A DNA stretch of 64,000 bases, taken from the NCBI RefSeq assembly GCF_036588685.1, contig NC_086374.1, positions 20,398,001 through 20,462,000 on the forward strand, read 5' to 3'. This document shows positions 1 to 44,094 of this stretch, piece by piece. The stretch's first letter is position 1, and each line of letters begins with the position of its first letter. The translations under genes were made by a program, and so were the position numbers. Under the pieces are notes generated by a model. It did no database searches. It saw only the letters and a program-made list of their open reading frames with translations, and was not told where the DNA came from. Source of the DNA: Mytilus trossulus (taxonomy: Eukaryota).

Positions 1-3000
1 ACTTACTGATGGTACTGTGGCAGATACAGCTGTTCCATTAACAGATGGTACTGTGGCAGAAACAGTTGTTCCGCTAACCGATGGTCCTGTGGCAGAGACA
101 GTTGTACCACTTACAGATGGTCCAGTGGCAAGAACAGTTGTCCCACTCACAGATGGTACTGTAGCAGAAACAGTTGTTCCAATTACTGATGGTACTGTGG
201 CAGAAACAGTTGTCCCACTTACTGATGGTACTGTGGCAGAAACAGTTGTCCCACTTACAGATGGTACTGTGGCAGAAACAGTTGTTCCACTTACAGATGG
301 TCCACTGACAGAGACAGTTGTTCCACTAACAGATGGTCCAGTGACAGAGGCAGTTGTTCCACTTACAGATGGTCCAGTGACAGAGACAGTTGTTCCACTT
401 ACTGATGGTACTGTGGCAGAGACAGTTGTTTCACCTACTGATGGTACTGTGCCAGGGATAGTTGTTCCACTAACAGATGGCCCTGTGGCAGATACAGTTG
501 TTCCACTTACAGATGGTCCAGTGACAGAGACAGTAGTCCCACTTACAGAAGGTCCTGTGGCAGAAACAGTTGTCCCACTTACAGATGGTACTGTGGCAGA
601 ACCAGTTGTTCCATTTACAGATGGTACTGTGGCAGAAACAGTTGTTCCACTTACAGATGGTCCTGTGACAGAGACAGTTGTTCCACTAACAGATGGTCCA
701 GTGACAGAGGCAGTTGTTCCACTAACTGATGGTACTGTGGCAGAAACAGTTGTACCACTAACAGAAGGTCCTGTAGCAGAAACAGTTGTTCCGCTTACAG
801 ATGGTCCACTGACAGAGACAGTTGTCCCACTTACAGATGGTCCAGTGGCAGAGACAGTTGTTCCACCTACTGATGGTACTGTGGCAGACAAAGTTGTTCC
901 ACTTACTGATGGTAATGTGGCAGAGACAGTTGTTCCACTTACTGATGGTACTGTGGCAGATACAGTTGTTCCACTGACAGATGGGCCTGTGGCAGAGACA
1001 GTTGTTCCACTAACAGATGGTCCTGTGGCAGAAACCGTTGTTCCACTAACAGATGGTACTGTAGCAGAAACAGTTGTACCACTTACTGATGGTCCAGTGG
1101 CAGAGACAGTTGTTCCACTTACTGATGGTACTGTGGCAGATACAGCTGTTCCAGTAACAGATGGTACTGTGGCAGAAACAGTTGTTCCGCTAACCGATGG
1201 TCCTGTGGCAGAGACAGTTGTACCACTTACAGATGGTCCAGTGGCAAGAACAGTTGTCCCACTCACAGATGGTACTGTAGCAGAAACAGTTGTTCCAATT
1301 ACTGATGGTACTGTGGCAGAAACAGTTGTCCCACTTACTGATGGTACTGTGGCAGAAACAGTTGTCCCACTTACAGATGGTACTGTGGTAGAAACAGTTG
1401 TTCCACTTACAGATGGTCCACTGACAGAGACAGTTGTTCCACTAACAGATGGTCCAGTGACAGAGGCAGTTGTTCCACTTACAGATGGTCCAGTGACAGA
1501 GACAGTTGTTCCACTTACTGATGGTACTGTGGCAGATACAGTTGTTCCACTAACAGATGGTCCTGTGGCAGAAACCGTTGTTCCACTAACAGAGGGTCCA
1601 GTGGCAGAAACAGTTGTACCACTTACAGATGGTCCAGTGGTAGAGACAGTTGTTCCACCTACTGATGGTACTGTGGCAGATACAGTTGTTCCACTTACTG
1701 ATGGCAATGTGGCAGAGACAGTTGTTCCACTTACTGATGGTACTGTGGCAGATACAGTTGTTCCACTAACAGATGGTCCTGTGGCAGAAACCGTTGTTCC
1801 ACTAACAGATGGTACTGTAGCAGAAACAGTTGTACCACTTACTGATGGTCCAGTGGCAGAGACAGTTGTTCCACTTACTGATGGTACTGTGGCAGATACA
1901 GCTGTTCCACTAACAGATGGTACTGTGGCAGAAACAGTTGTTCCGCTAACCGATGGTCCTGTGGCAGAGACAGTTGTACCTACAGATGGTCCAGTGGCAG
2001 AGACAATTGTTCCACTTACTGATGGTCCTGTTGCAGATACAGTTGTTCCACTAACAGATGGAACTGTAGCAGAAACAGTTGTCCCACTTACAGAAGGTCC
2101 AGTGGCAGAGACAGTTGTTCCACTTACTGATGGTACTGTGGCAGAGACAGTTGATCCACTTACTGATGGTACTGTGGCAGAGACAGTTGTCCCACTTACT
2201 GATGGTACTGTGGCAGAAACAGTAGTCCCACTTACAGATGGTACTGTGGCAGAAACAGTTGTTCCACTTACAGATGGTCCACTGACAGAGACAGTTGTTC
2301 CACTAACAGATGGTCCAGTGACAGAGGCAGTTGTTCCACTTACAGATGGTCCTGTGGCAGATACAGTTGTTCCACCTACTGATGGTACTGTGGCAGATAC
2401 AGTTGTTCCACTTACAGATGGTCCAGTGGCAGAGACAGTTGTTCCACCTACTGATGGTACTGTGGCAGATACAGTTGTTCCACTTACTGATGGTACTGTG
2501 GCAGATACAGTTGTTCCACTTACTGATGGTACTGTTGCAGAGACAGTTGTTCCACTTACTGATGGTACTGTGGCAGATACAGTTGTTCCACTAACAGATG
2601 GTACTGTGGCAGAAACCGTTGTTCCACTAACAGATGGTCCTGTGGCAGAAACAGTTGTACCACTTACAGATGGTCCAGTGGCAGAGACAGTGGTTCCACC
2701 TACTGATGGTACTGTGGCAGATACAGTTGTTCCACTTACTGATGGTACTGTGGCAGAGACAGTAGTTCCACTTACTGATGGTACTGTGGCAGATACAGTT
2801 GTTCCACTAAAAGATGGTCCTGTGGCAGAAACCGTTGTTCCACTAACAGAGGGTCCTGTGGCAGAAACAGTTGTACCACTTACAGATGGTCCAGTGGTAG
2901 AGACAGTTGTTCCACCTACTGATGGTACTGTGGCAGATACAGTTGTTCCACTTACTGATGGTAATGTGGCAGAGACAGTTGTTCCACTTACTGATGGTAC

Positions 3001-6000
3001 TGTGGCAGATACAGTTGTTCCACTGACAGATGGGCCTGTGGCAGAGACAGTTGTTCCACTAACAGATGGTCCTGTGGCAGAAACCGTTGTTCCACTAACA
3101 GATGGTACTGTAGCAGAAACAGTTGTACCACTTACTGATGGTCCAGTGGCAGAGACAGTTGTTCCACTTACTGATGGTACTGTGGCAGATACAGCTGTTC
3201 CACTAACAGATGGTACTGTGGCAGAAACAGTTGTTCCGCTAACCGATGGTCCTGTGGCAGAGACAGTTGTACCACTTACAGATGGTCCAGTGGCAAGAAC
3301 AGTTGTCCCACTCACAGATGGTACTGTAGCAGAAACAGTTGTTCCAATTACTGATGGTACTGTGGCAGAAACAGTTGTCCCACTTACTGATGGTACTGTG
3401 GCAGAAACAGTTGTCCCACTTACAGATGGTACTGTGGCAGAAACAGTTGTTCCACTTACAGATGGTCCACTGACAGAGACAGTTGTTCCACTAACAGATG
3501 GTCCAGTGACAGAGGCAGTTGTTCCACTTACAGATGGTCCAGTGACAGAGACAGTTGTTCCACTTACTGATGGTACTGTGGCAGAGACAGTTGTTTCACC
3601 TACTGATGGTACTGTGCCAGGGATAGTTGTTCCACTAACAGATGGCCCTGTGGCAGATACAGTTGTTCCACTTACAGATGGTCCAGTGACAGAGACAGTA
3701 GTCCCACTTACAGAAGGTCCTGTGGCAGAAACAGTTGTCCCACTTACAGATGGTACTGTGGCAGAACCAGTTGTTCCACTTACAGATGGTACTGTGGCAG
3801 AAACAGTTGTTCCACTTACAGATGGTCCTGTGACAGAGACAGTTGTTCCACTAACAGATGGTCCAGTGACAGAGGCAGTTGTTCCACTAACTGATGGTAC
3901 TGTGGCAGAAACAGTTGTACCACTAACAGAAGGTCCTGTAGCAGAAACAGTTGTTCCGCTTACAGATGGTCCACTGACAGAGACAGTTGTCCCACTTACA
4001 GATGGTCCAGTGGCAGAGACAGTTGTTCCACCTACTGATGGTACTGTGGCAGACAAAGTTGTTCCACTTACTGATGGTCCTGTGGCAGATACAGTTGTTC
4101 CACTAACAGATGGAACTGTAACAGAAACAGTTGTCCCACTTACAGAAGGTCCAGTGGCAGAGACAGTTGTTCCACCTACTGATGGTACTGTGCCAGGGAT
4201 AGTTGTTCCACTAACAGATGGCCCTGTGGCAGATACAGTTGTTCCACTTACAGATGGTCCAGTGACAGAGACGGTAGTCCCACTTACAGAAGGTCCTGTG
4301 GCAGAAACAGTTGTCCCACTTACAGATGGTACTGTGGCAGAAACAGTTGTTCCATTTACAGATGGTACTGTGGCAGAAACAGTTGTTCCACTTACAGATG
4401 GTCCAGTGACAGAGGCAGTTGTTCCACTAACAGATGGTCCAGTGACAGAGGCAGTTGTTCCACTTACAGAAAGTCCTGTGGCAGAAACAGTTGTCCCACT
4501 CACAGATGGTACTGTAGCAGAAACAGTTGTTCCACTAACTGATGGTACTGTGGCAGAAACAGTTGTACCACTAACAGAAGGTCCTGTGGCAGAAACAGTT
4601 GTTCCACTTACAGATGGTACTGTGGCAGAAACAGTTGTTCCACTTACAGATGGTCCACTGACAGAGACAGTTGTCCCACTTACAGATGGTCCAGTGGCAG
4701 AGACAGTTGTTCCACCTACTGATGGTACTGTGGCAGACAAAGTTGTTCCACTTACTGATTGTCCTGTGGCAGATACAGTTGTTCCACTAACAGATGAAAC
4801 TGTAGCAGAAACAGTTGTCCCACTTACAGAAGGTCCAGTGGCGGAGACAGTTGTTCCACTTACTGATGGTACTGTGGCAGAGACAGTTGTTCCACTTACT
4901 GATGGTACTGTGGCAGAAACAGCTGTCCCACTTACTGATGGTACTGTGGCAGAAACAGTTGTCCCACTTACAGATGGTACTGTGGCAGAAACAGTTGTTC
5001 CACTTACCGATGGTCCACTGACAGAGACAGTTGTTCCACTAACAGATGGTCCAGTGACAGAGGCAGTTGTTCCACTTACATATGGTTCAGTGACAGAGAC
5101 AGTTGTTCCACTTACTGATGGTACTGTGGCAGAGACAGTTGTACCACTTACAGATGGTCCAGTGGCAGAGACAGTTGTTTCACCTACTGATGGAACTGTA
5201 CCAGGGATAGTTGTTCCACTAACAGATGGCCCTGTTGCAGATACAGTTGTTCCACTTATGGATGGTACTGTAGCAGAAACAGTTGTACCACTTACAGATG
5301 GTCCTGTGGCAGAAACAGTTGTTCCACTTACTGATGGTACTGTGGCAGATAAAGTTGTTCCACTTACTGATGGTCCTGTGGCAGATACAGTTGTTCCACC
5401 TACTGATGGTACTGTGGCAATTACAGTTGTTCCACTTACAGAAGGTCCAGTGGCAGAGACAGTTGTTCCACCTACTGATGGTACTGTGGCAGATACAGTT
5501 GTTCCACTTACTGATGGTACTGTGGCAGATACAGTTGTTCCACTTACTGATGGTACTGTGACAAAGACAGTTGTTCCACTTACTGATGGTACTGTGGCAA
5601 AACCAGTTGTCCCACTAACAGATGGTCCTGTGGCAGAAACCGTTGTTCCACTAACAGATGGTCCTGTGGCAGAAACAGTTGTTCCACTTACTGATGGTAC
5701 TGTGGCAGAGACAGTTGTTTCACCTACTGATGGTACTGTGCCAGGGATAGTTGTTCCACTAACAGATGGCCCTGTGGCAGATACAGTTGTTCCACTTACA
5801 GATGGTCCAGTGACAGAGACAGTAGTCCCACTTACAGAAGGTCCTGTGGCAGAAACAGTTGTCCCACTTACAGATGGTACTGTGGCAGAACCAGTTGTTC
5901 CACTTACAGATGGTACTGTGGCAGAAACAGTTGTTCCACTTACAGATGGTCCTGTGACAGAGACAGTTGTTCCACTAACAGATGGTCCAGTGACAGAGGC

Positions 6001-9000
6001 AGTTGTTCCACTAACTGATGGTACTGTGGCAGAAACAGTTGTACCACTAACAGAAGGTCCTGTTGCAGAAACAGTTGTTCCGCTTACAGATGGTCCACTG
6101 ACAGAGACAGTTGTCCCACTTACAGATGGTCCAGTGGCAGAGACAGTTGTTCCACCTACTGATGGTACTGTGGCAGACAAAGTTGTTCCACTTACTGATT
6201 GTCCTGTGGCAGATACAGTTGTTCCACTAACAGATGGAACTGTAACAGAAACAGTTGTCCCACTTACAGAAGGTCCAGTGGCAGAGACAGTTGTTCCACC
6301 TACTGATGGTACTGTGCCAGGGATAGTTGTTCCACTAACAGATGGCCCTGTGGCAGATACAGTTGTTCCACTTACAGATGGTCCAGTGACAGAGACGGTA
6401 GTCCCACTTACAGAAGGTCCTGTGGCAGAAACAGTTGTCCCACTTACAGATGGTACTGTGGCAGAAACAGTTGTTCCACTTACAGATGGTACTGTGGCAG
6501 AAACAGTTGTTCCACTTACAGATGGTCCAGTGACAGAGGCAGTTGTTCCACTAACAGATGGTCCAGTGACAGAGGCAGTTGTTCCACTTACAGAAAGTCC
6601 TGTGGCAGAAACAGTTGTCCCACTCACAGATGGTACTGTAGCAGAAACAGTTGTTCCACTAACTGATGGTACTGTGGCAGAAACAGTTGTACCACTAACA
6701 GAAGGTCCTGTGGCAGAAACAGTTGTTCCACTTACAGATGGTACTGTGGCAGAAACAGTTGTTCCACTTACAGATGGTCCACTGACAGAGACAGTTGTCC
6801 CACTTACAGATGGTCCAGTGGCAGAGACAGTTGTTCCACCTACTGATGGTACTGTGGCAGACAAAGTTGTTCCACTTACTGATTGTCCTGTGGCAGATAC
6901 AGTTGTTCCACTAACAGATGGAACTGTAGCAGAAACAGTTGTCCCACTTACAGAAGGTCCAGTGGCGGAGACAGTTGTTCCACTTACTGATGGTACTGTG
7001 GCAGAGACAGTTGTTCCACTTACTGATGGTACTGTGGCAGAAACAGCTGTCCCACTTACTGATGGTACTGTGGCAGAAACAGTTGTCCCACTTACAGATG
7101 GTACTCTGGCAGAAACAGTTGTTCCACTTACCGATGGTCCACTGACAGAGACAGTTGTTCCACTAACAGATGGTCCAGTGACAGAGGCAGTTGTTCCACT
7201 TACATATGGTTCAGTGACAGAGACAGTTGTTCCACTTACTGATGGTACTGTGGCAGAGACAGTTGTACCACTTACAGATGGTCCAGTGGCAGAGACAGTT
7301 GTTTCACCTACTGATGGTACTGTACCAGGGATAGTTGTTCCACTAACAGATGGCCCTGTTGCAGATACAGTTGTTCCACTTATGGATGGTACTGTAGCAG
7401 AAACAGTTGTACCACTTACAGATGGTCCTGTGGCAGAAACAGTTGTTCCACTTACTGATGGTACTGTGGCAGATAAAGTTGTTCCACTTACTGATGGTCC
7501 TGTGGCAGATACAGTTGTTCCACCTACTGATGGTACTGTGGCAATTACAGTTGTTCCACTTACAGAAGGTCCAGTGGCAGAGACAGTTGTTCCACCTACT
7601 GATGGTACTGTGGCAGATACAGTTGTTCCACTAATGGATGGTACTGTAGCAGAAACAGTTGTACCACTTACAGATGGTCCTGTGGCAGATACAGTTGTTC
7701 CACTTACTGATGGTACTGTGGCAGATACAGTTGTTCCACTTACTGATGGTACTGTGGCAGAGACAGTTGTTCCACTTACTGATGGTACTGTGGCAAATAC
7801 AGTTGTTCCACTAACAGATGGTCCTGTGGCAGAAACCGTTGTTCCACTAACAGATGGTCCTGTGGCAGAAACAGTTGTACCAGTTACAGAAAGTCCTGTG
7901 GCGAAAACAGTTGTCCCACTCACAGATGGTACTGTAGCAGAAACAGTTGTTCCACTAACTGATGGTACTGTGGCAGAAACAGTTGTCCCACTTACAGAAG
8001 GTCCTGTGGCAGAAACAGTTGTCCCACTTACAGATGGTACTGTGGCAGAAACAGTTGTTCCACTTACAGATGGTCCACTGACAGAGACAGTTGTCCCACT
8101 TACAGATGGTCCAGTGGCAGATACAGTTGTTCCACTTACAGATGGTCCACTGACAGAGACAGTTGTACCACTTACAGATGGTCCAGTGGCAGAGACAGTT
8201 GTTCCACCTACTGATGGTACTGTGGCAGATAAAGTTGTTCCACTAACAGATGGAACTGTAGCAGAAACAGTTGTCCCACTTACAGAAGGTCCAGTGGCAG
8301 AGACAGTTGTTCCACTTACTGATGGTACTGTGGCAGAGACAGTTGTTCCACTTACTGATGGTACTGTGACAGAAACAGTTGTCCCACTTACTGATGGTAC
8401 TGTGGCAGAAACAGTTGTCCCACTTACAGATGGTACTGTGGCAGAAACAGTTGTTCCACTAACAGATGGTCCACTGACAGAGACAGTTGTTCCACTAACA
8501 GATGGTCCAGTGACAGAGGCAGTTGTTCCACTTACAGATGGTCCAGTGACAGAGACAGTTCTTCCACTTACTGATGGTACTGTGACAGAGACAGTTGTAC
8601 CACTCACAGATGGTCCAGTGGCAGAGACAGTTGTTTCACCTACTGATGGTACTGTACCTTGGATAGTTGTTCCACTAACAGATGGTCCTGTTGCAGATAC
8701 AGTTGTTCCACTAATGGATGGTACTGTAGCAGAAACAGTTGTACCACTTACAGATGGTCCTGTGGCAGAGACGGTTGTTCCACTTACTGATGGTACTGTG
8801 GCAGATAAAGTTGTCCCACTTACTGATGGTCCTGTGGCAGATACAGTTGTTCCACCTACTGATGGTACTGTGGCAGATACAGTTGTTCCACTTACAGATG
8901 GTCCAGTGGCAGAGACAGTTGTTCCACCTACTGATGGTACTGTGGCAAATACAGTTGTTCCACTTACTGATGGTACTGTGGCAGATACAGTTGTCCCACT

Positions 9001-10976
9001 TACAGAAGGTCCAGTGGCAGAGACAGTTGTTCCACTTATGGATGGTACTGTAGCAGAAACAGTTGTACCACTTACAGATGGTCCTGTGGCAGAAACAGTT
9101 GTTCCACTTACTGATGGTACTGTGGCAGATAAAGTTGTCCCACTTACTGATGGTCCGGTGGCAGAGACAGTTGTTCCACTTACTGATGGTACTGTGGCAG
9201 ATAAAGTTGTCCCACTTACTGATGGTCCTGTGGCAGATACAGTTGTTCCACCTACTGATGGTACTGTGGCAGATACAGTTGTTCCACTTACAGATGGTCC
9301 AGTGGCAGAGACAGTTGTTCCACCTACTGATGGTACTGTGGCAGATACAGTTGTTCCACTTACTGATGGTACTGTGGCAGATACAGTTGTCCCACTTACA
9401 GAAGGTCCAGTGGCAGAGACAGTTGTTCCACTTACTGATGGTACTATGGCAGATAGAGTTGTTCCACTTACTGATGGTCCTGTGGCAGATACAGTTGTTC
9501 CACTTACTGATGGTACTGTGGCAGATACAGTTGTTCCACTTACTGATGGTACTGTGGCAGATACAGTTGTACCACTTACAGATGGTCCAGTGGCAGAGAC
9601 AGTTGTTCCACCTACTGATGGTACTGTGGCAGATAAAGTTGTCCCACGTACTGATGGTCCTGTGGCAGATACAGTTGTTCCACTTACAGATGGTCCAGTG
9701 ACAGAGATAGTTGTTCCACTTACTGATGGTACTATGGCAGAGACAGTTGTACCACTTACAGATGGTCCAGTGGCAGATACAGTTGTTTCACCTGCTGATG
9801 GTACTGTGCCAGGGATAGTTGTTCCACTAACAGATGGTCCTGTTGCAGATACAGTTGTTCCACTAATGGATGGTACTGTAGCAGAAACAGTTGTACCACT
9901 TACAGAAAGTCCTGTGGCAGAAACAGTTGTCCCACTTACAGATGGTACTGTGGAAGATACAGTTGTTCCACTTACAGATGGTCCAGTGACAGAGATAGTT
10001 GTTCCACTTACTGATGGTACTATGGCAGAGACAGTTGTACCACTTACAGATGGTCCAGTGGCAGATACAGTTGTTTCACCTGCTGATGGTACTGTGCCAG
10101 GGATAGTTGTTCCACTAACAGATGGTCCTGTTGCAGATACAGTTGTTCCACTAATGGATGGTACTGTAGCAGAAACAGTTGTACCACTTACAGAAAGTCC
10201 TGTGGCAGAAACAGTTGTCCCACTTACAGATGGTACTGTGGCAGAAACAGTTGTGCCACTTACAGATGGTACTGTGGCAGAAACAGTTGTTCCACTTACA
10301 GATGGTCCACTGACAGAGACAGTTGTTCCATTAACAGATGGTCCAGTGACAGAGGCAGTTGTTCCACTTACAGATGGTCCAGTGACAGAGACAGTTGTTC
10401 CACTTACTGATGGTACTGTGGCAGAGACAGTTGTACCACTTACAGATGGGCCAGTGGCAGAGACAGTTGTTTCACCTACTGATGGTACTGTGCCAGGGAT
10501 AGTTGTTCCACTAACAGTTGGTCCTGTGACAGAAACAGTTGTTCCACTTACAGATGGTCCTGTGGCAGAAACAGTTGTCCTACTTACAGATGGTCCAGTG
10601 GTAGAGACAGTTGTTCCACCTACTGATGGTACTGTGGCAGATACAGTTGTTCCACCTACTGATGGTACTATGGCAGATACAGTTGTTTCACTTACTGATG
10701 GTACTGTGGAAGATACAGTTGTTCCACTAGCAGATGGTCCTGTGGCAGAGACAGTTGTTCCACCTACTGATGGTACTGTTGCAGATACAGTTGTACTACT
10801 TACAGATGGTCCAGTGGCAGAGAAAGTTGTTCCACTCACAGATGGTACTGTTGCAGAGACAGTTGTGCCACTTACTGATGGTACTGTGGCAGAAACAGTT
10901 GTTCCACTTACAGATGGTACTGTTGCAGAGACAGTTGTTCCACTTACAGATGGTACTGTAGCAGATACTGTAGTAC
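1..10976 (-). CDS. Giant mucin-like gene, repeat exon B (36-bp/12-aa unit, consensus SGTTVSAT[V/G]PSV); runs past window start
   Basis: Acceptor tttcag|GT ACT ACA GTA at 10977/10976 is phase 1 and matches the upstream donor at 12202. The minus frame reads S/T/G/P/V repeats throughout. It is absent from the ORF track because no stop is reached inside the window. Confidence 0.9.
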
Positions 10977-11264
10977 CTGAAAATGAAGGAAACAAATAAC
11001 GTTGTTAGAAATTTTACTTTATCCTATAATTCGAATTTTATATCAATCAAACTTACTATATTGAAAATACTGGGTACGCATACAAAGATTTTTAAGAAGT
11101 GTATATTGTTAAATGTAAAGCTTAAGGTTGATGGTTTTATTTATTGAAATAAAGGAGTCGACTGAATTCTCACACGTTATTAAACATATCAATCTTTAAG
11201 AATCAGAATGAGAAAGCTCCTAATTGTAACTGAAGAAGTTTGATATCCATTAAAAAAAAATGGG

Positions 11265-12201: not shown

Positions 12202-12334
12202 CTACAAAACAAGCATGAAGCTCAACGTCTACATGATATGGTTCATTTGGATTGTTTTTAGTCAAAAAAGTAATAATAACTTTGTCTGCGTATGTATCAG
12301 CTGGGAATATGGCAACCTCGTCTCCGTCATACAC
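12202..12334 (-). CDS. Mucin-like gene exon, C-terminal half of globular domain 2 (VYDGDEVAIFPADTYADKVIITFLTKNNPNEPYHVDVELHACFV)
   Basis: ttcag|GTG acceptor and GTAG|gtatgt donor; 133 nt, phase 0 to 1; open frame ending ELHAC, like the terminal E-L-x-G-C of F5/8C domains. Confidence 0.85.
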
Positions 12335-13304: not shown

Positions 13305-13603
13305 AGGTCCAATCTGCCGAGGACTATCGTCGTCAAAATCTTGCACGCTAACAATATATGTAGCCACGTTGCTTTCATCAGAGAGCGGCACAATATCTAT
13401 ATTTCCTAATTCTGGTCTTCCATCTAATGTTATAGTTATCGATGGATTTTGATCTTGTACGTCCGGTATAATTAATAAATCTCCTCCGGGTCGGATCTCC
13501 TCTATATCATTTTGTGTTGGAATGTTTGATGTAATTCTTCCTGGAGCAATCAATGCTGGGTCATCCATACCTTCAACTGTATCACATGGTAATATCGTAG
13601 TCT
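13305..13603 (-). CDS. Mucin-like gene exon, N-terminal half of globular domain 2 (ETTILPCDTVEGMDDPALIAPG...PRQIGP)
   Basis: ttttatag|AG acceptor and CCT|gtaagc donor; 299 nt, phase 1 to 0; overlaps ORF 13236..13568. Confidence 0.85.
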
Positions 13604-13950
13604 CTATAAAAGCAAATCAATAATTAGTGTATCACACGGTAATATCGTAGTCTCTTTAAAAACAAATCAAAATGAGTGTATCACACATTATATATCGTAG
13701 TCTCTATAAAAACAAATCAAAATTAGTGTATCACATGGTAATATCGTAGTCTCTATAAAACAAATCAAAATTAGTGTATCACATGGTAATATCGTAGTCT
13801 CTATAAAACAAATCAAAATTAGTGTATCACATGGTAATATCGTAGTCTCTATAAAACAAATCAAAATTAGTGTATCACATGGTAATATCGTAGTCTCTAT
13901 AAAAACAAATCAATGTTTCACACAAGAATATCGTAGTCTCTATAAAACAA
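13579..13950. repeat. Minisatellite, ~8 copies of a 48-50 bp unit spanning the exon 3' splice site
   Basis: Unit gtatcacatggtaatatcgtagtctctataaaacaaatcaaaattagt starts at about 13579, 13629, 13678, 13728, 13776, 13824, 13872 and 13915. Confidence 0.95.
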
Positions 13951-14343
13951 ATTAGTGTAAAAGATATAGTGTTGCTGTAACACACAACAGATGCACACTC
14001 TGTTATGAAAACAGTGTGTAAGTCTATACAATAGAACATTTAATTTCCACCAAGTACGAAACATTTAGCAGATTCCTACCAGACCATTTCAGGAATTCAC
14101 ATGGATTCAAGCAGGAAATTTTAAATTCCTGTTATATTTTAGACGTACTAGGGAAAACTTGTTTTCCTCGCAGAATTTTCCAACAACAACATTCGTGGGA
14201 TTGGTAACGGGAATATATTTTTATGCCAGAAAAACTTTTTTTGGTTAGTATAACTTTGTTATTTTTGTTTAATTATATGTTCTATATGGGCCCTTTAATG
14301 AGGAATAAAGACATTATCTCAATGTCAACCATACCATATCATC

Positions 14344-17891: not shown

Positions 17892-20800
17892 CAGTGACAG
17901 TTCCAGTAAGGGGTGGTCCTGAAACAGAAACAGTCGTTCCACTAACAGAAGGTCCAATACTAGCGACAGTGGTTCCAGTAACTGATGGTCCGACATTAGT
18001 AATAGTTGGTCCTGTAACATATGGTCCACTTACAGACGGTACTGTGGCAGGTATAGTTGTACCACTCACTGATGGTACTGTGGCAGATATAGTCGTCTCA
18101 CTTACAGAAGGAACTGCGCCTGATATTGTTGAAGTTCCAAATGATATTCTAGGTGGAGATGTTCCACCTGCTGCACCCTTTTGAGTAGTTGATACCGTAA
18201 TAGATGGTACTGTGCCTGGGATTGTTGTTCCACTGACGGATGGTTCTGTTGCAGATACGGTTGTTACGCTAACTGATGGTCCAGTGGAAGAGACAGTAGT
18301 TCCACTAACAGAAGGTACTGTTGCAGATACTGTTGTCCCACTTATAGTTGGTCCTGTGGCAGAAACAGTTGTTCCACCAACTGATGGTACTGTGCCAGGA
18401 ATAGTTGTTCCACTAACTGATGGTACTGTGGCAGAGAATGTTGTTCCACTTACTAATGGTACTGTGGCAGAAACAGTTGTTCCGCTAACCGATGGTCCTG
18501 TTGCAGAGACAGTTGTTCCGCTTACCGATGGTCCTGTGGCAGAGATAGTTGTTCCACTTACAGTTGGTTCTGTGGCAGAAACAGTTGTTCCACTCACAGA
18601 TGGTCCTGTGGCAGAGACTGTTGTTCCACTAACTGATGGTACTGTGCCTGGTATAGTTGTTCCACTGACGGATGGTCCTGTGGCAGAGACAGTTGTTCCG
18701 CTTACCGATGGTCCTGTGGCAGAGACAGTTGTTCCACTTACAGAAGGTACTGTTGCAGATACTGTTGTCCCACTAACTGATGGTCCTGTGGCAGAAACAG
18801 TTGCTCCGCTTACAGATGGTACAGTGGCAAAAACACTTGTTCCACTTACAGATGGTACTGTGCCAGATATTGTTGAAGTTTCAAATGATATTCTAGGTGG
18901 AGATGTACCACCTGCTGCACCCTTTTGAGTAGTTGATACCGAAATAGATGGTACTGTGCCTGGGACAGTTGTTCCACTGACGGATGGTCCTGTGCCAGGG
19001 AAAGTTGTTCCACTGACGGATGGTCCTGAAACAGATACTGTTGTTCCACTTACTGATGGCCCTGTGGCAGAGACAGTTGTTCCACTTACAGATGGTCCTG
19101 TGGCAGATATAGTTGTCCCACTTACAGATGGTCCTGAAACAGATACTGTTGTTCCACTTACTGACGGTACTGTGGCAGATATAGTTGTTCCACTAACTGA
19201 TGGTCCTGTGGCAGAGACAGTTGTTCCGCTTACAGATGGTCCTGTGGCAGAAACAGTTGTCCCACTCACAGATGGTCCTGTAGCAGAGACAGTTGTTCCA
19301 CTAACAGATGGTCCTGTGGCCGAGACTGTTGTTCCACTAACTGATGGTACTATAGCAGAAACAGTTGTTCCACTCACAGATGGTCCTGTGGCAGAGACAG
19401 CTGTTGCACTTACAGATGGTCCTGTGGCAGATACAGTTGTTGCGCTTACAGATGGTCCTGTGGCAGAAACAGTTGTTCCACTCACAGATGGTCCTGTGGC
19501 GGAAACAGTTGTTCCACTCACAGATGGTACTGTAGCAGAAACAGTTATCCCACCTACAGATGGTACTGTGGCAGAAACAGTCGTCCCACTTACAGAAGGT
19601 CCTGTGGCAGAAACAGTTGTCCCACTTACTGATGGTACTGTGGCAGAGACAGTTGTCCCACTTACAGATGGTCCTGTGGCAGAGACAGTTGTTCCACTCA
19701 CAGATGGTCCTGTGGCAGAGACAGTTGTTTCACTTACAGATGGTCCTGTGGCAGATATAGTTGTCCCACTTACAGATGGTCCTGAAACAGATACTGTTGT
19801 TCCACTTACTGATGGTTCAGTGGCAGAAACAGTCGTTCCACTTATAGATGGTCCAGTGACAGAGACAGTTGTTCCACTTACTAATGGTACTGTGGCAGAA
19901 ACAGTTGTCCCACTTACAGAAGGTCCTGTGGCAGAAACAGTTGTTCCACTTACAGATGGTCCAGTGGCAGAGACAGTTGTCCCACTTACAGATGGTCCTG
20001 TGGCAGAGACTGTTGTTCCACCTACTGATGGTCCTGTGGCAGAGACTGTTGTTCCACTAACTGATGGTACTGTAGCAGATACAGTTGTTCCACTTATAGA
20101 TGGTACAGTGGCAGAGAAAGATGTTCCACTCACAGATGGTCCTGTGGCAGAGACAGTTGTTCCACTTACAGATGGTCCTGTGGCAGAAACAGTTGTTCCA
20201 CTCACAGATAGTCCTGTGGCAGAAACAGTTGTTCCACTTACAGATGGCCCTGTGGCAGAGACTGTTGTTCCACTAACTGATGGGACTGTAGCAGATACAG
20301 TTGTTCCACTTATAGATGGTCCTGTGGCAGAGACTGTTGTTCCACTAACTGATGGTACTGTGGCAGAGACAGTTGTTCCACTTACAGATGGTCCTGTGGC
20401 AGAGACTGTTGTTCCACCTACAGATGGTCCAGTGGCAGAAACAGTTGTTCCACTCACAGATAGTCCTGTGGCAGAAACAGTTGTTCCACTTACTGATGGT
20501 CCAGTGGCAGAAACAGTCGTTCCACTTACTGATGGTACTGTGGCAGAAACAGTTGTTCCGCTAACCGATGGTACTGTGGCAGAAACAGTTGTTCCGCTAA
20601 CCGATGGTCCTGTGGCAGAGACAGTTGTTCCGCTTACTGATGGTCCTGTGGCAGAAACAGTTGTTCCACTCACAGATGGTACTGTGGCAGAAACAGTTGT
20701 TCCGCTAACCGATGGTCCTGTTGCAGAGACTGTTGTTCCACCTACAGATGGTCCAGTGGAAGAAACAGTTGTTCCACTTACAGATGGTACTGTGCCAGAT

Positions 20801-23800
20801 ATTGTTGAAGTTCCAAATGATATTCTAGGTGGAGATGTACCACCTGCTGCACCCTTTTGAGTAGTTGATACCGAAATAGATGGTACTGTGCCTGGGATAG
20901 TTGTTCCACTGACGGATGGTCCTGTGCCAGGGAAAGTTGTTCCACTGACGGATGTTCCTGTGGTAGAGACAGTTGTTCCGCTAACCGATGGTCCTGTTGC
21001 AGAGACTGTTGTTCCACTTACTGATGGCCCTGTGGCAGAGACAGTTGTTTCACTTACAGATGGTCCTGTGGCAGATATAGTTGTCCCACTTACAGATGGT
21101 CCTGAAACAGATACTGTTGTTCCACTCACAGATGGTCCTGTGGCAGAAACAGTTGTTCCACTTACTGATGGTACTGTGAAAGAAACAGTTGTCCCACTTA
21201 CAGAAGGTCCTGTGGCAGAAACAGTTGTTCCACTTACAGATGGTCCAGTGGCAGAGACAGTTGTCCCACTTACAGATGGTCCTGTGGCAGAAACTGTTGT
21301 TCCACCTACTGATGGTCCTGTGGCAGAGACTGTTGTTCCACTAACTGATGGTACTGTAGCAGATACAGTTGTTCCACTTATGGATGGTCCAGTGGCAGAG
21401 ACAGTTGTTCCACTCACAGATGGTCCTGTGGCAGAGACAGTTGTTCCACTTACAGATGGTCCTGTGGCAGAAACAGTTGTTCCACTCACAGATAGTCCTG
21501 TGGCAGAAACAGTTGTTCCACTTACTGATGGTCCAGTGGCAGAAACAGTCGTTCCACTTACTGATGGTACTGTGGCAGAAACAGTTGTTCCGCTAACCGA
21601 TGGTCCTGTGGCAGAAACAGTTGTTCCACTCACAGATGGTACTGTGGCAGAAACAGTTGTTCCGCTAACCGATGGTCCTGTTGCAGAGACTGTTGTTCCA
21701 CCTACAGATGGTCCAGTGGAAGAAACAGTTGTTCCACTTACAGATGGTACTGTGCCAGATATTGTTGAAGTTCCAAATGATATTCTAGGTGGAGATGTAC
21801 CACCTGCTGCACCCTTTTGAGTAGTTGATACCGAAATAGATGGTACTGTGCCTGGGATAGTTGTTCCACTGACGGATGGTCCTGTGCCAGGGAAAGTTGT
21901 TCCACTGACGGATGTTCCTGTGGTAGAGACAGTTGTTCCGCTAACCGATGGTCCTGTTGCAGAGACTGTTGTTCCACTTACTGATGGCCCTGTGGCAGAG
22001 ACAGTTGTTTCACTTACAGATGGTCCTGTGGCAGATATAGTTGTCCCACTTACAGATGGTCCTGAAACAGATACTGTTGTTCCACTCACAGATGGTCCTG
22101 TGGCAGAAACAGTTGTTCCACTTACTGATGGTACTGTGAAAGAAACAGTTGTCCCACTTACAGAAGGTCCTGTGGCAGAAACAGTTGTTCCACTTACAGA
22201 TGGTCCAGTGGCAGAGACAGTTGTCCCACTTACTGATGGTCCTGTGGCAGAGACTGTTGTTCCACCTACTGATGGTCCTGTGGCAGAGACTGTTGTTCCA
22301 CTAACTGATGGTACTGTAGCAGATACAGTTGTTCCACTTATGGATGGTCCAGTGGCAGAGACAGTTGTTCCACTCACAGATGGTCCTGTGGCAGAGACAG
22401 TTGTTCCACTTACAGATGGTCCTGTGGCAGAAACAGTTGTTCCACTCACAGATAGTCCTGTGGCAGAAACAGTTGTTCCACTTACTGATGGTCCAGTGGC
22501 AGAAACAGTCGTTCCACTTACTGATGGTACTGTGGCAGAAACAGTTGTTCCGCTAACCGATGGTCCTGTGGCAGAGACAGTTGTTCCGCTTACTGATGGT
22601 CCTGTGACAGAAACAGTTGTTCCACTCACAGATGGTACTGTGGCAGAAACAGTTGTTCCGCTAACCGATGGTCCTGTTGCAGAGACTGTTGTTCCACCTA
22701 CAGATGGTCCAGTGGAAGAAACAGTTGTTCCACTTACAGATGGTACTGTGCCAGATATTGTTGAAGTTCCAAATGATATTCTAGGTGGAGATGTACCACC
22801 TGCTGCACCCTTTTGAGTAGTTGATACCGAAATAGATGGTACTGTGCCTGGGATAGTTGTTCCACTGACGGATGGTCCTGTGCCAGGAAAAGTTGTTCCA
22901 CTGACGGATGTTCCTGTGGTAGAGACAGTTGTTCCGCTAACCGATGGTCCTGTTGCAGAGACTGTTGTTCCACTTACTGATGGCCCTGTGGCAGAGACAG
23001 TTGTTTCACTTACAGATGGTCCTGTGGCAGATATAGTTGTCCCACTTACAGATGGTCCTGAAACAGATACTGTTGTTCCACTCACTGACGGTACTGTGGC
23101 AGATATGGTTGTTCCACTTACTGATGGTCCAGTGGCAGAAACAGTCGTTCCACTTACTGATGGTACTGTGGCAGAAACAGTTGTTCCGCTAACCGATGGT
23201 CCTGTGGCAGAGACAGTTGTTCCGCTTACAGATGGTCCTGTGGCAGAAACAGTTGTTCCACTCACAGATGGTCCTCTGGCAGAAACAGTTGTTCCACTTA
23301 CTGATGGTACTGTGGCAGAAACAGTTGTCCCACTTACAGAAGGTCCTGTGGCAGAAACAGTTGTTCCACTTACAGATGGTCCAGTGGCAGAGACAGTTGT
23401 CCCACTTACAGATGGTCCTGTGGCAGAGACTGTTGTTCCACCTACTGATGGTCCTGTGGCAGAGACTGTTGTTCCACTAACTGATGGTACTGTAGCAGAT
23501 ACAGTTGTTCCACTTATGGATGGTCCAGTGACAGAGACAGTTGTTCCACTTACAAATGGTACTGTGGCAGAAACAGTTGTCCCACTTACAGAAGGTCCTG
23601 TGGCAGAAACAGTTGTTCCACTTACAGATGGTCCAGTGGCAGAGACAGTTGTCCCACTTACAGATGGTCCTGTGGCAGAGACTGTTGTTTCACCTACTGA
23701 TGGTCCTGTGGCAGAGACTGTTGTTCCACTAACTGATGGTACTGTAGCAGATACAGTTGTTCCACTTATAGATGGTACAGTGGCAGAGAAAGTTGTTCCA

Positions 23801-26800
23801 CTCACAGATGGTCCTGTGGCAGAGGCAGTTGTTCCACTTACAGATGGTCCTGTGGCAGAAACAGTTGTTCCACTCACAGATAGTCCTGTGGCAGAAACAG
23901 TTGTTCCACTTACAGATGGCCCTGTGGCAGAGACTGTTGTTCCACTAACTGATGGTACTGTAGCAGATACAGTTGTTCCACTTATAGATGGTCCTGTGGC
24001 AGAGACTGTTGTTCCACTAACTGATGGTACTGTGGCAGAGACAGTTGTTCCACTTACAGATGGTCCTGTGGCAGAGACTGTTGTTCCACCTACAGATGGT
24101 CCAGTGGCAGAAACAGTTGTTCCACTCACAGATAGTCCTGTGGCAGAAACAGTTGTTCCACTTACTGATGGTCCAGTGGCAGAAACAGTCGTTCCACTTA
24201 CTGATGGTACTGTGGCAGAAACAGTTGTTCCGCTAACCGATGGTCCTGTGGCAGTGACAGTTGTTCCGCTTACTGATGGTCCTGTGGCAGAAACAGTTGT
24301 TCCACTCACAGATGGTACTGTGGCAGAAACAGTTGTTCCGCTAACCGATGGTCCTGTTGCAGAGCTTGTTGTTCCACCTACAGATGGTCCAGTGGAAGAA
24401 AAAGTTGTTCCACTTACAGATGGTACTGTGCCAGATATTGTTGAAGTTCCAAATGATATTCTAGGTGGAGATGTACCACCTGCTGCACCCTTTTGAGTAG
24501 TTGATACCGAAATAGATGGTACTGTGCCTGGGATAGTTGTTCCACTGACGGATGGTCCTGTGCCAGGGAAAGTTGTTCCACTGACGGATGTTCCTGTGGT
24601 AGAGACAGTTGTTCCGCTAACCGATGGTCCTGTTGCAGAGACTGTTGTTCCACTTACTGATGGCCCTGTGGCAGAGACAGTTGTTTCACGTACAGATGGT
24701 CCTGTGGCAGATATAGTTGTCCCACTTACAGATGGTCCTGAAACAGATACTGTTGTTCCACTCACAGATGGTCCTGTGGCAGAAACAGTTGTTCCACTTA
24801 CTGATGGTACTGTGGCAGAAACAGTTGTCCCACTTACAGAAGGTACTGTGGCAGAAACAGTTGTTCCACTTACAGATGGTCCAGTGGCAGAGACAGTTGT
24901 CCCACTTACAGATGGTCCTGTGGCAGAGACTGTTGTTCCACCTACTGATGGTACTGTAGCAGATACAGTTGTTCCACTTATGGATGGTCCAGTGGTAGAG
25001 AAAGTTGTTCCACTCACAGATGGTCCTGTGGCAGAGACAGTTGTTCCACTAACAGATGGTCCTGTGGCAGAAACAGTTGTTCCACTCACAGATAGTCCTG
25101 TGGCAGAAACAGTTGTTCCACTTACTGATGGTCCAGTGGCAGAAACAGTCGTTCCACTTACTGATGGTACTGTGGCAGAAACAGTTGTTCCGCTAACCGA
25201 TGGTCCTGTGGCAGAGACAGTTGTTCCGCTTACTGATGGTCCTGTGGCAGAAACAGTTGTTCCACTCACAGATGGTACTGTGGCAGAAACAGTTGTTCCG
25301 CTAACCGATGGTCCTGTAGCAGAGACTGTTGTTCCACCTACAGATGGTCCAGTGGAAGAAACAGTTGTTCCACTTACAGATGGTACTGTGCCAGATATTG
25401 TTGAAGTTCCAAATGATATTCTAGGTGGAGATGTACCACCTGCTGCACCCTTTTGAGTAGTTGATACCGAAATAGATGGTACTGTGCCTGGGATAGTTGT
25501 TCCACTGACGGATGGTCCTGTGCCAGGGAAAGTTGTTCCACTGACGGATGTTCCTGTGGTAGAGACAGTTGTTCCGCTAACCGAAGGTCCTGTTGCAGAG
25601 ACTGTTGTTCCACTTACTGATGGCCCTGTGGCAGAGACAGTTGTTTCACTTACAGATGGTCCTGTGGCAGATATAGTTGTCCCACTTACAGATGGTCCTG
25701 AAACAGATACTGTTGTTCCACTCACTGACGGTACTGTGGCAGATATGGTTGTTCCACTTACTGATGGTCCAGTGGCAGAAACAGTCGTTCCACTTACTGA
25801 TGGTACTGTGGCAGAGACAGTTGTTCCGCTTACAGATGGTCCTGTGGCAGAAACAGTTGTTCCACTCACAGATGGTCCTGTGGCAGAAACAGTTGTTCCA
25901 CTTACTGATGGTACTGTGGCAGAAACAGTTGTCCCACTTACAGAAGGTCCTGTGGCAGAAACAGTTGTTCCACTTACAGATGGTCCAGTGGCAGAGACAG
26001 TTGTCCCACTTACAGATGGTCCTGTGGCAGAGACTGTTGTTCCACCTACTGATGGTCCTGTGGCAGAGACTGTTGTTCCACTAACTGATGGTACTGTAGC
26101 AGATACAGTTGTTCCACTTATGGATGGTCCAGTGGCAGAGAAAGTTGTTCCACTCACAGATGGTCCTGTGGCAGAGACAGTTGTTCCACTTACAGATGGT
26201 CCTGTGGCAGAAACAGTTGTTCCACTCACAGATAGTCCTGTGGCAGAAACAGTTGTTCCACTTACTGATGGTCCAGTGGCAGAAACAGTCGTTCTACTTA
26301 CTGATGGTACTGTGGCAGAAACAGTTGTTCCGCTAACCGATGGTCCTGTGGCAGAGACAGTTGTTCCGCTTACTGATGGTCCTGTGGCAGAAACAGTTGT
26401 TCCACTCACAGATGGTACTGTGGCAGAAACAGTTGTTCCGCTAACCGATGGTCCTGTTGCAGAGACTGTTGTTCCACCTACAGATGGTCCAGTGGAAGAA
26501 ACAGTTGTTCCACTTACAGATGGTACTGTGCCAGATATTGTTGAAGTTCCAAATGATATTCTAGGTGGAGATGTACCACCTGCTGCACCCTTTTGAGTAG
26601 TTGATACCGAAATAGATGGTACTGTGCCTGGGATAGTTGTTCCACTGACGGATGGTCCTGTGCCAGGGAAAGTTGTTCCACTGACGGATGTTCCTGTAGA
26701 AGAGACAGTTGTTCCGCTAACCGATGGTCCTGTTGCAGAGACTGTTGTTCCACTTACTGATGGCCCTGTGGCAGAGACAGTTGTTTCACTTACAGATGGT

Positions 26801-28670
26801 CCTGTGGCAGATATAGTTGTCCCACTTACAGATGGTCCTGAAACAGATACTGTTGTTCCACTCACTGACGGTACTGTGGCAGATATGGTTGTTTCACTTA
26901 CTGATGGTCCAGTGGCAGAAACAGTCGTTCCACTTACTGATGGTACTGTGGCAGAAACAGTTGTTCCGCTAACCGATGGTCCTGTGGCAGAGACAGTTGT
27001 TCCGCTTACAGATGGTCCTGTGGCAGAAACAGTTGTTCCACTCACAGATGGTCCTGTGGCAGAAACAGTTGTTCCACTTACAGATGGTCCTGTGGCAGAG
27101 ACTGTTGTTCCACTAGCTGATGGTACTGTAGCAGATACAGTTGTTCCACTTATAGATGGTCCAGTGACAGAGACAGTTGTTCCACTCACAGATGGTCCTG
27201 TGGCAGAGACAGTTGTTCCACTTACAGATGGTCCTGTGGCAGAGACTGTTGTTCCACCTACAGATGGTGCAGTGGCAGAAACAGTTGTTCCACTTACAGA
27301 TGGTACTGTGCCAGATATTGTTGAAGTTCCAAATGATATTCTAGGTGGGGATGTACCACCTGCTGCACCCTTTTGAGTAGTTGATACCGAAATAGATGGT
27401 ATTGTGCCTGGGATAGTTGTTCCACTGACGGATGGTCCTGTGCCAGGGAAAGTTGTTCCACTGACGGATGGTCCTGAAACAGATAATGTTGTTCCACTTA
27501 CTGACGGTCCTGTGGCAGAGACAGTTGTTCCACTTACAGATGGTCCTGTCGCAGATATAGTTGTCCCACTTACAGATGGTCCTGAAACAGATACTGTTGT
27601 TCCACTTACTGACGGTACTGTGGCAGATGTAGTTGGTCCACTTACTGATGGTCCAGTGGCAGAAACAGTCGTTCCACTTACTGATGGTACTGTGGCAGAA
27701 ACAGTTGTTCCGCTAACCGATGGTCCTGTGGCAGAGACAGTTGTTCCGCTTACAGATGGTCCTGTGGCAGAAACAGTTGTTCCACTCACAGATGGTACTG
27801 TGGCAGAAACAGTTGTTCCGCTAACCGATGGTCCTGTGGCAGAGACTGTTGTTCCACCTACAGATGGTCCAGTGGCAGAAACAGTTGTCCCACTTATAGA
27901 TGGTCCAGTGACAAAGACAGTTGTTCCACTCACAGATGGTCCTGTGGCAGAGACAGTTGTTTCACTTACAGATGGTCCTGTGGCAGAGACTGTTGTTCCA
28001 CCTACAGATGGGCCAGTGGCAGAAACAGTTGTTCCACTTACAGATGGTACTGTGCCAGATATTGTTGAAGTTCCAAATGATATTCTAGGTGGAGATGTAC
28101 CACCTGCTGCACCCTTTTGAGTAGTTGATACCGAAACAGATGGTACTGTGCCTGGGATAGTTGTTCCACTGACGGATGGTCCTGTGCCAGGGAAAGTTGT
28201 TCCACTGACGGATGGTCCTGAAACAGATACTGTTGTTCCACTTACTGATGGTCCTGTGGCAGAGGCAGTTGTTCCACTTACAGATGGTCCTGTGGCAGAT
28301 ATAGTTGTCCCACTTACAGATGGTCCTGAAACAGATACTGTTGTTCCACTTACTGACGATACTGTGGCAGATATAGTTGTTCCACTTACTGATGGTCCAG
28401 TGGCAGAAACAGTCGTTCCACTTACTGATGGTACTGTGGAAGAAACAGTTGTTCCGCTAACTGATGGTCCTGTGGCAGAGACAGTTGTTCCACTTACAGA
28501 TGGTCCTGTGGCAAATACAGTTGTTCCACTAATGGATGGTAATGTGGCAGATATAGTTGTCCCACTTACAGATTGTCCTGTGGCAGATACAGTTGTTCCA
28601 CTAATAGATGGCGATGTGGCAGATATAGTTGTTTCAGTTACTGATGGTCCTTTACTAGAAAGGGTTATCC
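17892..28670 (-). CDS. Giant mucin-like gene, repeat exon A (10,779 nt = 3,593 codons; SGTTVSATGPSV repeats with ten TTQKGAAGGTSPPRISFGTS spacers)
   Basis: ttacag|GG acceptor at 28671/28670 and ACTG|gtatgt donor at 17892/17891; length divisible by 3, phase 1-1; overlaps ORF 17803..27933 in the same frame. Confidence 0.92.
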
Positions 28671-28854: not shown

Positions 28855-28893
28855 CAGCAGTAGGAACTGTCGTTACACCTTGTGTAGTGGATT
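28855..28893 (-). CDS. Mucin-like gene micro-exon (ESTTQGVTTVPTA)
   Basis: attgtag|AA acceptor and GCTG|gttagt donor; 39 nt, phase 1-1. Confidence 0.8.
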
Positions 28894-29645: not shown

Positions 29646-29787
29646 CCATAAGACACCCAATTAAATCAAATCGGAGTTTAATAGGCTGAGATTGGGCTAC
29701 TGGAATGATCTGAATTGCCTTAACTGGTTCCAATGATGGTAGGTCTACAGTCACGACACTATCTCCATCTGTATTACCTACAAACTC
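29646..29787 (-). CDS. Mucin-like gene exon, C-terminal half of F5/8 type C (discoidin) domain (EFVGNTDGDSVVTVDL...IKLRFDLIGCLM)
   Basis: tttttag|GAG acceptor and ATGG|gtaag donor; 142 nt, phase 0 to 1; F-x-G-N-x-D and L-R-x-[DE]-L-x-G-C discoidin motifs. Confidence 0.9.
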
Positions 29788-30959: not shown

Positions 30960-31255
30960 CATAGGATTTCCATTAATATCATTTATATCTTCCCACTGTC
31001 CGTCCACATTTTTCACCTTCACAGTAAACTTCTCCAAGAAAGTATCGTTAATTCCTCCGCCTTGTATTAAAATAGCATTGACGATTGCAGTAGTTGGAAA
31101 GGAAACGGTGACATTTGGGCTTTTATCATTCAATACATCAGGTGTCCATGCAGTTCCGTTGATTTGGGAATCTACTTGTGGGTTGATTTCGCTACTGTAA
31201 TCTACATATTGATCAGGAATAGCTCCAACATTTCTCATTTCGTCTTCACAAAACT
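30960..31255 (-). CDS. Mucin-like gene exon, N-terminal half of F5/8 type C domain (EFCEDEMRNVGAIPDQYVDYSS...AWTP...IQGG...DGQW...NPM)
   Basis: tttag|AG acceptor and ATG|gtaagg donor; 296 nt, phase 1 to 0; C..M..G.I.D, AW.P, QG and DG..W motifs of F5/8C. Confidence 0.9.
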
Positions 31256-31692
31256 CTAAAAAGAAAAATGAAATGCGTAACGAGGGATGATCTAAATATT
31301 GTTTAATTGTTTTGTTTGATTTATTTTAAGTTATATAATTAGGGAAAGAAGATAAGGTACTGCGTAACACAAAACTGTACTTTCCAAGAATGTATACATT
31401 TTCATCCATTCTTGCAAAAGTTTACATGTAGTCTTTTATTTTCTATATAATGTTTGCTTTTTGTTGTTTGCCATAGTATTTTTTTTTATATTTCCTGCAT
31501 TTTTTTTATTTTGTCCCCTTGATAACTTCTCTGTTTATAAGAATTTTTCAGCATAAAGAACGTTATGGATACAAAATTAATGTAGAATACCGATTTAAAT
31601 AAGTTAAAACATATGAACATTGACTTTTTTATGGTAGGGAATGTCACCAATGATTCCTGAATTAATATTCATTGTATATCTGGAATACATAC

Positions 31693-31716
31693 CTACTGTA
31701 GTTACTTGCTGTGTAC
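31693..31716 (-). CDS. Mucin-like gene 24-nt micro-exon (xTQQVTTV)
   Basis: ctttacag|GT acceptor and GTAG|gtatgt donor; phase 1-1; Thr-rich. Confidence 0.7.
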
Positions 31717-44093: not shown

Positions 44094-44094
44094 A

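Follow-up and report, generated by a model that had tools for sequence, protein, structure and literature searches.

We analyzed a window of 64,000 nucleotides (nt) from Mytilus trossulus (contig NC_086374.1, positions 20,398,001 to 20,462,000; positions below are those of the window, i.e., of this whole stretch), the minus strand of which appears to carry one very large gene that alternates small Cys-bracketed domains with giant Ser/Thr-rich repeat arrays.

Exons and repeat arrays on the minus strand

The DNA of the window is of animal type and AT-rich (about 30% GC). In it lie two blocks of 47% GC (1-11,000 and 17,900-28,700), each of which holds one minus-strand open frame of more than 3,600 codons composed of 24% Ser and 24% Thr. 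Ten minus-strand exons, joined in the order given in Table 1, yield 22,970 nt (about 7,657 codons) with fitting phases throughout and no stop codon. The first-pass annotation had proposed such a chain of ten GT-AG exons, open at the window edge, with Ser/Thr arrays of about 3,600 and at least 3,650 residues; upon recomputation we obtained the same total, and array lengths of 3,592 and at least 3,657 residues. All ten exons are preceded by AG and all but the last, which is cut by the window edge, are followed by GT. At the 5′ side, too, the gene is open, as the first placed exon begins in phase 1. The introns between placed exons range from 184 to 2,000 nt. Splice sites were ranked with a profile built from the gene's own introns, leaving out each site in turn. 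Eight of the nine donors fell within the top 5.3% of 2,355 GT sites and nine of the ten acceptors within the top 6% of 1,914 AG sites, the weaker sites being the donor of the first exon of domain 2 (17%) and the acceptor at 17,011 (18%). The visible protein would comprise 7,656 residues (692 kDa), of which 3,567 are Ser or Thr, nine are Tyr and four are Cys, two in each domain; most of the Ser and Thr lie in the arrays.

Both arrays have a period of 36 nt, with about 85% match and 0% indels, and consist of 48% Ser plus Thr and 8.4-8.7% Pro, with no Cys. This composition agrees with the published definition of a mucin proline/threonine/serine (PTS) domain, given in the accessible part of Lang et al. 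(2016; PMC4948705) as at least 40% Ser plus Thr and usually over 5% Pro. The arrays have a common repeat consensus and share 77 in-frame 36-mers. A longer unit with a Gln-Lys-Gly motif breaks array A 10 times, at spacings of 744-1,932 nt, and array B is unbroken. Selection was analyzed on those units whose spacing is precisely 12 residues (array A, 236; array B, 289). Mismatch to the consensus was 0.20 (A) and 0.19 (B) at third codon positions and 0.03-0.08 at positions 1 and 2, and the ratio of nonsynonymous to synonymous differences (pN/pS) was 0.28 and 0.30, respectively. None of the 93 distinct units of array A or the 117 of array B contains a stop, compared with means of 7.2 and 5.4 and minima of 2 and 1 in a neutral simulation that never reached zero in 200 runs; since the units are related by descent, the substitutions and stops counted here are non-independent events. 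These patterns indicate that the arrays are coding and kept by purifying selection.

Across array B, the plus frame runs for 3,665 codons without a stop. Such a stop can arise only where the minus frame has a Tyr, His or Gln codon. Array B, with six residues of these kinds, has no plus-frame stop; array A has 10, each of them at the Gln of its interruption unit. The long plus-strand open reading frame (ORF) exists because the amino acid composition of the sense protein rarely yields antisense stops, and we interpret it as a shadow of the minus-strand protein and not as a gene. As third codon positions coincide in the two frames, pN/pS alone cannot choose the strand. An exact look-up in a protein collection found none of seven window ORFs, the ATG-started antisense ORF included.

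The two Cys-bracketed domains

Domain 1 comprises 142 residues with a Cys at both ends, and its Trp-x-Pro and Gln-Gly motifs are kept. Its first exon matched Pfam PF00754 (E-value 8.9e-5) with 23.1 bits, below the curated cut-off of 28.2 because this exon is only part of the domain, and an Atlas search with the same exon returned F5/8C domains in 30 of 30 matches (top score 0.97). Against a profile built from 24 database domains, the spliced domain reached an E-value of 3.6e-27, and its second exon was matched by tblastn from Ciona and hemocytin domains. Judged by these matches, domain 1 belongs to the F5/8 type C (discoidin) domains, as had been suggested on the first pass. Sequence searches of the PDB gave nothing relevant.

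A full HMMER search with the first exon of domain 1 recovered 18 database relatives, nine exon-sized and nine long, none of them a full-length orthologue. In word-based searches, no longer relative (173-2,000 aa) of either domain's first exon came up. The nine exon-sized relatives are gene calls with 32-97% identity. When these and three cluster mates were aligned, similarity stopped in all 12 short sequences at one junction, with Val next. This shared end fits a conserved phase-0 intron, which we regard as supporting and not conclusive evidence; Val at that junction occurs in some spliced F5/8C domains too. One of the nine long matches (P0017, with bacterial-type domains) was dropped as spurious, leaving eight for comparison.

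Domain 2 comprises 136 residues with a terminal Cys pair, and its intron phases are identical to those of domain 1. It is collinear with the relatives of domain 1 at 14-22% identity, and its global score against a 37-domain profile was 15.4, compared with 2.8 ± 2.4 for shuffled sequences, none of 150 of which reached it. A comparison of two alignments gave a probability of 33%, and the direct pairwise comparison of domains 1 and 2 was not significant (764 and 917 of 2,000 shuffles reached the score). The Trp and Gln-Gly motifs, present in 36 and 32 of the 37 database domains, respectively, are absent from domain 2, which carries 27 acidic and six basic residues (the median net charge of the database domains is -9). 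A near-length word-based search found a single relative, 93% identical. An unguided model of the first exon (94 aa) had a predicted local distance difference test (pLDDT) score of 48.6, and fold searches with this low-confidence model listed no discoidin domain, which is not evidence against the fold. Modeled with domain 1 relatives as a guide, the exon reached a pLDDT of 62.5 and its best matches were galactose-binding/discoidin domains (Z up to 4.8, root-mean-square deviation 5.6, 88 aligned residues), a match that is circular because the guide alignment consists of domain 1 relatives. We conclude that domain 2 is probably a degenerate F5/8C relative.

Some further features surround domain 2. 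The 48-nt repeat at its acceptor (13578-13952, minus strand) contains the 3′ splice site and the first codons of the exon in eight copies. Seven of the eight copied acceptors score as strong, and the frame is open from the last copy only; splicing to any of the upstream copies would cut the protein short ahead of domain 2. A repeat with a 195-nt period (14435-14927) lies within the 2-kilobase (kb) intron preceding domain 2. Just upstream of the acceptor of the 207-nt linker exon there are in-frame ATG codons and a hydrophobic stretch (15811-15883, minus strand), which could be an alternative start yielding a shorter secreted form.

Table 1. Predicted exons of the minus-strand gene, in order of transcription, followed by other features of the locus.
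Exon	Position	Strand	Feature	Basis
1	31693..31716	-	24-nt Thr-rich micro-exon, phase 1-1, most upstream placed	Acceptor top 2.4%, donor top 0.8%
2	30960..31255	-	Domain 1 (F5/8 type C), first exon, carries N-terminal Cys	Pfam, Atlas, database relatives
3	29646..29787	-	Domain 1, second exon, carries C-terminal Cys	Spliced-domain profile score; tblastn matches
4	28855..28893	-	39-nt Thr-rich linker exon, phase 1-1	Frame and splice-site scores
5	17892..28670	-	Array A, single 10,779-nt exon, 3,592 aa	12-residue S/T/V/G/P/A repeats
6	16937..17011	-	75-nt S/T-rich linker exon, phase 1-1, weak acceptor	Frame and splice-site scores
7	15604..15810	-	207-nt T/P/G-rich linker exon, resembles array A interruption unit	Sequence, frame
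8	13305..13603	-	Domain 2, first exon, probably degenerate F5/8C-like, very acidic	Collinear with domain 1 relatives
9	12202..12334	-	Domain 2, second exon, carries C-terminal Cys	Intron phases same as domain 1
10	1..10976	-	Array B, exon ≥10,976 nt (≥3,657 aa), open at window edge	12-residue repeat as in array A
	16024..16101	-	Possible eleventh exon, 78 nt, open, phase 1-1, uncertain	Donor top 1.4%, acceptor only top 61%
	13578..13952	-	48-nt tandem repeat at domain 2 acceptor, eight copies	Repeat and splice-site scans
	32120..32720	-	Ten strong donor motifs in 600 nt, just upstream of gene	Splice-site scoring
	2..10996	+	Antisense shadow ORF, 3,665 codons, interpreted as no gene	Composition of minus frame

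Relatives, gene ends and neighboring elements

Six of the eight long relatives of domain 1 alternate F5/8C domains with Ser/Thr-rich spacers of 38-484 residues: a Ciona mucin-5AC-like protein (five domains), two Antedon proteins (nine and six), a lamprey mucin-5AC-like protein (four) and two unnamed proteins (two each). The first-pass suggestion of a possibly uncharacterised mucin class is overstated, as the alternation already exists in these animals and F5/8C domains are described as characteristic of lophotrochozoan mucin-like proteins in the accessible text of Lang et al. (2016; PMC4948705). The best-scoring long relative is the Ciona intestinalis protein (XP_026696163.1; P0026, cluster mate P0006; E-value 1.1e-13, 33% identity), which has five F5/8C domains, each bracketed by Cys, and between them spacers that contain no Cys and 44-48% Ser plus Thr. 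However, its spacers have 78-103 aa compared with about 3,600 here, a Cys-rich region follows, and no degenerate domain resembling domain 2 was seen in it. The two Antedon mediterranea proteins (XP_071944560.1, P0007, and XP_071945600.1, P0013) have nine and six F5/8C-like domains, respectively, with Ser/Thr-rich spacers between them, and the record of P0007 holds no VWD; they differ in spacer length (44-484 aa), and in P0013 a VWD-C8 unit stands at the N-terminus and the tail contains Cys. The Lampetra planeri protein (XP_078460294.1; P0016) places four F5/8C domains among Ser/Thr/Pro-rich spacers within a mucin, but its spacers have 38-104 aa and its three VWD, three C8, four TIL and two CysD domains make it gel-forming by architecture.

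Other known systems share parts of this layout. Hemolectin/hemocytin (P0018) and lophotrochozoan VWD mucin-like proteins have central F5/8C domains, sometimes beside PTS, but their defining feature is a set of VWD-C8-TIL units (3+2 layout), none of which turned up here, and the PTS that sometimes accompanies F5/8C in insect hemolectins is small, as far as the available part of the source goes (PMC4948705). The same partial text describes Xenopus mucins in which SEA and PTS alternate (PMC4948705), a beads-on-a-string arrangement with one folded domain type as in our gene, although with SEA instead of F5/8C and with no homology implied. The arrays of our gene (about 3,600 aa) are about seven times as long as the longest spacer of any relative (at most 484 aa), and each lies on one exon. 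Vertebrate MUC5B and MUC2 likewise have their PTS on one very large exon with small folded domains interspersed. Unlike in our gene, with its two giant exons and with F5/8C domains on exons of their own, the CysD domains of those mucins lie inside the exon. Their polymerization occurs through D3 and cystine-knot Cys (PMC6109156, available part). No description of the F5/8C-PTS architecture as a family was found in a literature collection that lacked most subscription papers, and PMC7333891 and PMC7853314 contributed nothing on it. The alternation of F5/8C domains and Ser/Thr-rich stretches is already known, while the scale of the spacers and the apparent lack of N-terminal D domains differ here.

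Searches for mucin polymerization domains gave consistently negative results. Profiles for VWD, C8, TIL and CysD matched none of the 905 minus-strand segments of the window; in spike controls with held-out 40-residue pieces, these profiles recovered 19 of 28, 7 of 7, 9 of 9 and 10 of 10 pieces, respectively; VWC was represented by a single-member profile that had no such control. In the 32 kb that lie upstream of the gene, tblastn with VWD-bearing relatives found no VWD, C8, TIL or CysD exon, and Pfam found none of these domains in the 93 segments of at least 45 residues (out of 536). A Chordopox_L2 match in one of the 93 was below cut-off and was taken as compositional noise. The first-pass statement that no VWD or CysD domains are seen is supported by these searches on the minus strand of the window. 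The visible part has four Cys in 7,656 residues and no CysD profile match. On its predicted protein, we class the gene fragment among the mucins that bear F5/8C domains rather than among the gel-forming ones. Rfam returned no match in the window.

The 5′ end was approached through splice-site density. Ten strong donors lie in the 600 nt between 32,120 and 32,720, compared with a mean of 2.0, this being the top sliding bin, picked post hoc. This cluster suggests that 5′ leader or untranslated exons of the gene may be close by, and we think it fairly probable that the gene starts close upstream of 31,716, with no N-terminal VWD-C8-TIL assemblies. The same region (32120-32720, minus strand) contains several good acceptors at short, intron-like spacing, and coding paths through it were no better than chance.

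The 32 kb upstream of the gene contain remains of mobile elements. A broken long interspersed nuclear element (LINE) retrotransposon lies at 40421-43850 on the plus strand, with endonuclease (E-value 3.4e-8) and reverse transcriptase (E-value 9.7e-33) matches in several frames. It is flanked by inverted or dispersed repeat pairs (39985-40215 with 45805-46044, 88%; 44089-44211 with 45003-45121, 93%) that are likely to be short mobile elements. At 59479-63639, two 550-nt direct repeats, 99.6% identical, with TG...CA ends and a 4-nt target duplication, resemble long terminal repeats (LTRs); the element, which adjoins a LINE reverse-transcriptase fragment and has no long internal ORF, probably inserted recently as a non-autonomous LTR element. 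A long imperfect inverted repeat at 51330-51760, noticed by eye and below the threshold of self-comparison, is possibly a fold-back element.

A candidate F5/8C-PTS mucin and its alternatives

We favor, with modest confidence, the reading in which a single gene encodes a secreted F5/8C-PTS mucin whose discoidin domains act as non-covalent stickers between brushes. It is supported by the open spliced frame with its strong splice sites, the selection on the arrays and their PTS-type composition, the repeat consensus common to both arrays, the identity of domain 1, the junction shared by its 12 short relatives, the global profile score of domain 2, the matching intron phases of the two domains, the F5/8C alternation in six of the eight long relatives, and the searches that detected no VWD, C8, TIL or CysD exon, set beside placed introns of only 184-2,000 nt. 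Under this reading, one minus-strand marine-invertebrate gene would encode a giant extracellular protein whose arrays, like those of known mucins, would be densely O-glycosylated and form extended, protease-resistant, water-binding brushes. At 0.25 nm per residue, each brush would be about 0.9 micrometre long. Each Cys pair would, as in the family, close its own domain by one internal disulfide, which would leave the visible part with no free Cys for covalent polymers of the MUC2 type. CysD domains have a cross-linking or anchoring role in vertebrate mucins, and the F5/8C domains may occupy their place here, providing non-covalent cross-links or anchorage. Domain 1, with its family motifs kept, may bind glycans on neighboring chains, cells or microbes, and domain 2, degenerate and strongly acidic, may serve as a structural or calcium-dependent contact. 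A byssus or shell role, also raised on the first pass, finds no positive support (nine Tyr in 7,656 residues). In sea star adhesive, lectin domains, F5/8C included, have been proposed to cross-link glycosylated proteins non-covalently, according to the accessible part of that report (PMC9382459).

Several points weigh against this reading. We infer the splicing of the ten-exon chain from the DNA alone. The ligands of F5/8C domains are highly diverse. VWD domains occur in three of the eight long relatives, and such domains may lie beyond the window. Domain 2 is weakly assigned: its local profile score was reached by 4 of 150 shuffles with an HH probability below 3%, its scores in hidden Markov model tests were reached by 14 and 1 of 1,000 shuffles, and neither of its exons had a Pfam match, nor did the domain have a PDB or a usable Atlas match. 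A signal peptide or start exon was not found, none of six first-exon candidates being in phase 1, and a leader-exon path was rejected, its best score of 2.8 being equalled or beaten in 9 of 15 control windows. Finally, the 15,810 exon is preceded by an in-frame ATG and a hydrophobic, signal-peptide-like extension (10-residue mean hydropathy 1.99), which would suit a second gene starting there.

We consider it rather unlikely, though the most probable of the alternatives, that the window holds the middle of a conventional, hemolectin-like gel-forming mucin, polymerized through disulfides, with VWD-C8-TIL units at one or both ends outside the window and F5/8C domains as inserts in its PTS. The lamprey XP_078460294 (three VWD, two CysD, and four F5/8C between Ser/Thr-rich spacers) and the Antedon XP_071945600 (VWD-C8 plus six alternating domains) are precedents, F5/8C is characteristic of lophotrochozoan mucin-like proteins in the part of the survey cited above (PMC4948705), and both gene ends lie outside what was placed. 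However, N-terminal D assemblies would need a gap of more than 32 kb after 31,716, compared with at most 2.0 kb for the other introns, and no such exons were detectable in the 32 kb upstream by tblastn, profiles or Pfam. At the other end, where the gene runs off the window at position 1, C-terminal VWD or cystine-knot domains may still follow. We give little credence to two tandem paralogous genes with one domain and one array each, the second starting at the ATG that precedes the 15,810 exon. Besides the hydrophobic extension just mentioned, a combination of ATG and hydrophobic feature found at 2 of 29 acceptor-like sites outside the arrays (the 15,810 site counted), eight AATAAA/ATTAAA hexamers between 17,890 and 15,810 would fit this arrangement, as would the lack of any exact run of at least 250 nt common to both arrays. 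Yet AT-rich intron ends are often hydrophobic when translated and such hexamers are common at 30% GC, while at most about 2 kb would have to accommodate a 3′ end plus promoter, and the sites that join the two halves are strong (array A donor top 0.3%, 17,011-exon donor top 2.3%, 15,810 acceptor top 2.2%) with fitting phases.

A membrane-tethered glycocalyx mucin, of which the visible part would be the ectodomain and whose transmembrane segment would lie beyond the window start, seems improbable to us. In tethered mucins, too, the PTS typically lies on a single very large exon. No polymerizing Cys occurs among the 7,656 visible residues, and the C-terminus is beyond the window; but SEA or another tethered-mucin Pfam family occurs in none of the eight long F5/8C relatives (membrane segments were not scanned), and the visible protein has no sign of an anchor or membrane segment, its highest 19-residue hydropathy being 1.29. 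We regard it as very improbable indeed that the arrays represent satellite DNA or an artefact of assembly, or that the plus strand codes. The longest exact internal duplications (635 and 575 nt) mean that array copy number could be mis-assembled, and the plus frame of array B is open throughout its 3,665 codons. Nevertheless, the third-position bias, the pN/pS of 0.28-0.30 and the lack of stops argue against this alternative, plus-frame stops are tied to minus-frame Tyr, His or Gln (in array A, all 10 to the interruption-unit Gln), and splice sites and domains are found on the minus strand only.

An intact locus with two 11-kb coding arrays offers a concrete target for understanding how such mucus gels form, and the array B locus is in addition a clean example of a long antisense ORF arising from amino acid composition alone. 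If VWD domains turn up, the gene would be an unusually large member of a known group. If both ends prove to have neither VWD nor cystine-knot domains, this would point to non-covalent, lectin-based mucus building, testable with two small recombinant domains. A bolder and, in our view, doubtful extension is that the gene represents an undescribed family of VWD-free secreted mucins, with micrometre-long brushes cross-linked only by F5/8C stickers. Invertebrate mucins are poorly annotated because their repeats assemble badly (PMC4948705, accessible part), and such a family would be widespread, to judge by the exon-sized relatives of domain 1 at 29-64% identity, yet missing from spliced protein sets because its arrays defeat assembly and annotation. 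It would combine one canonical sticker with one repurposed acidic, possibly calcium-switched contact, and would represent mucus built without disulfide polymers.

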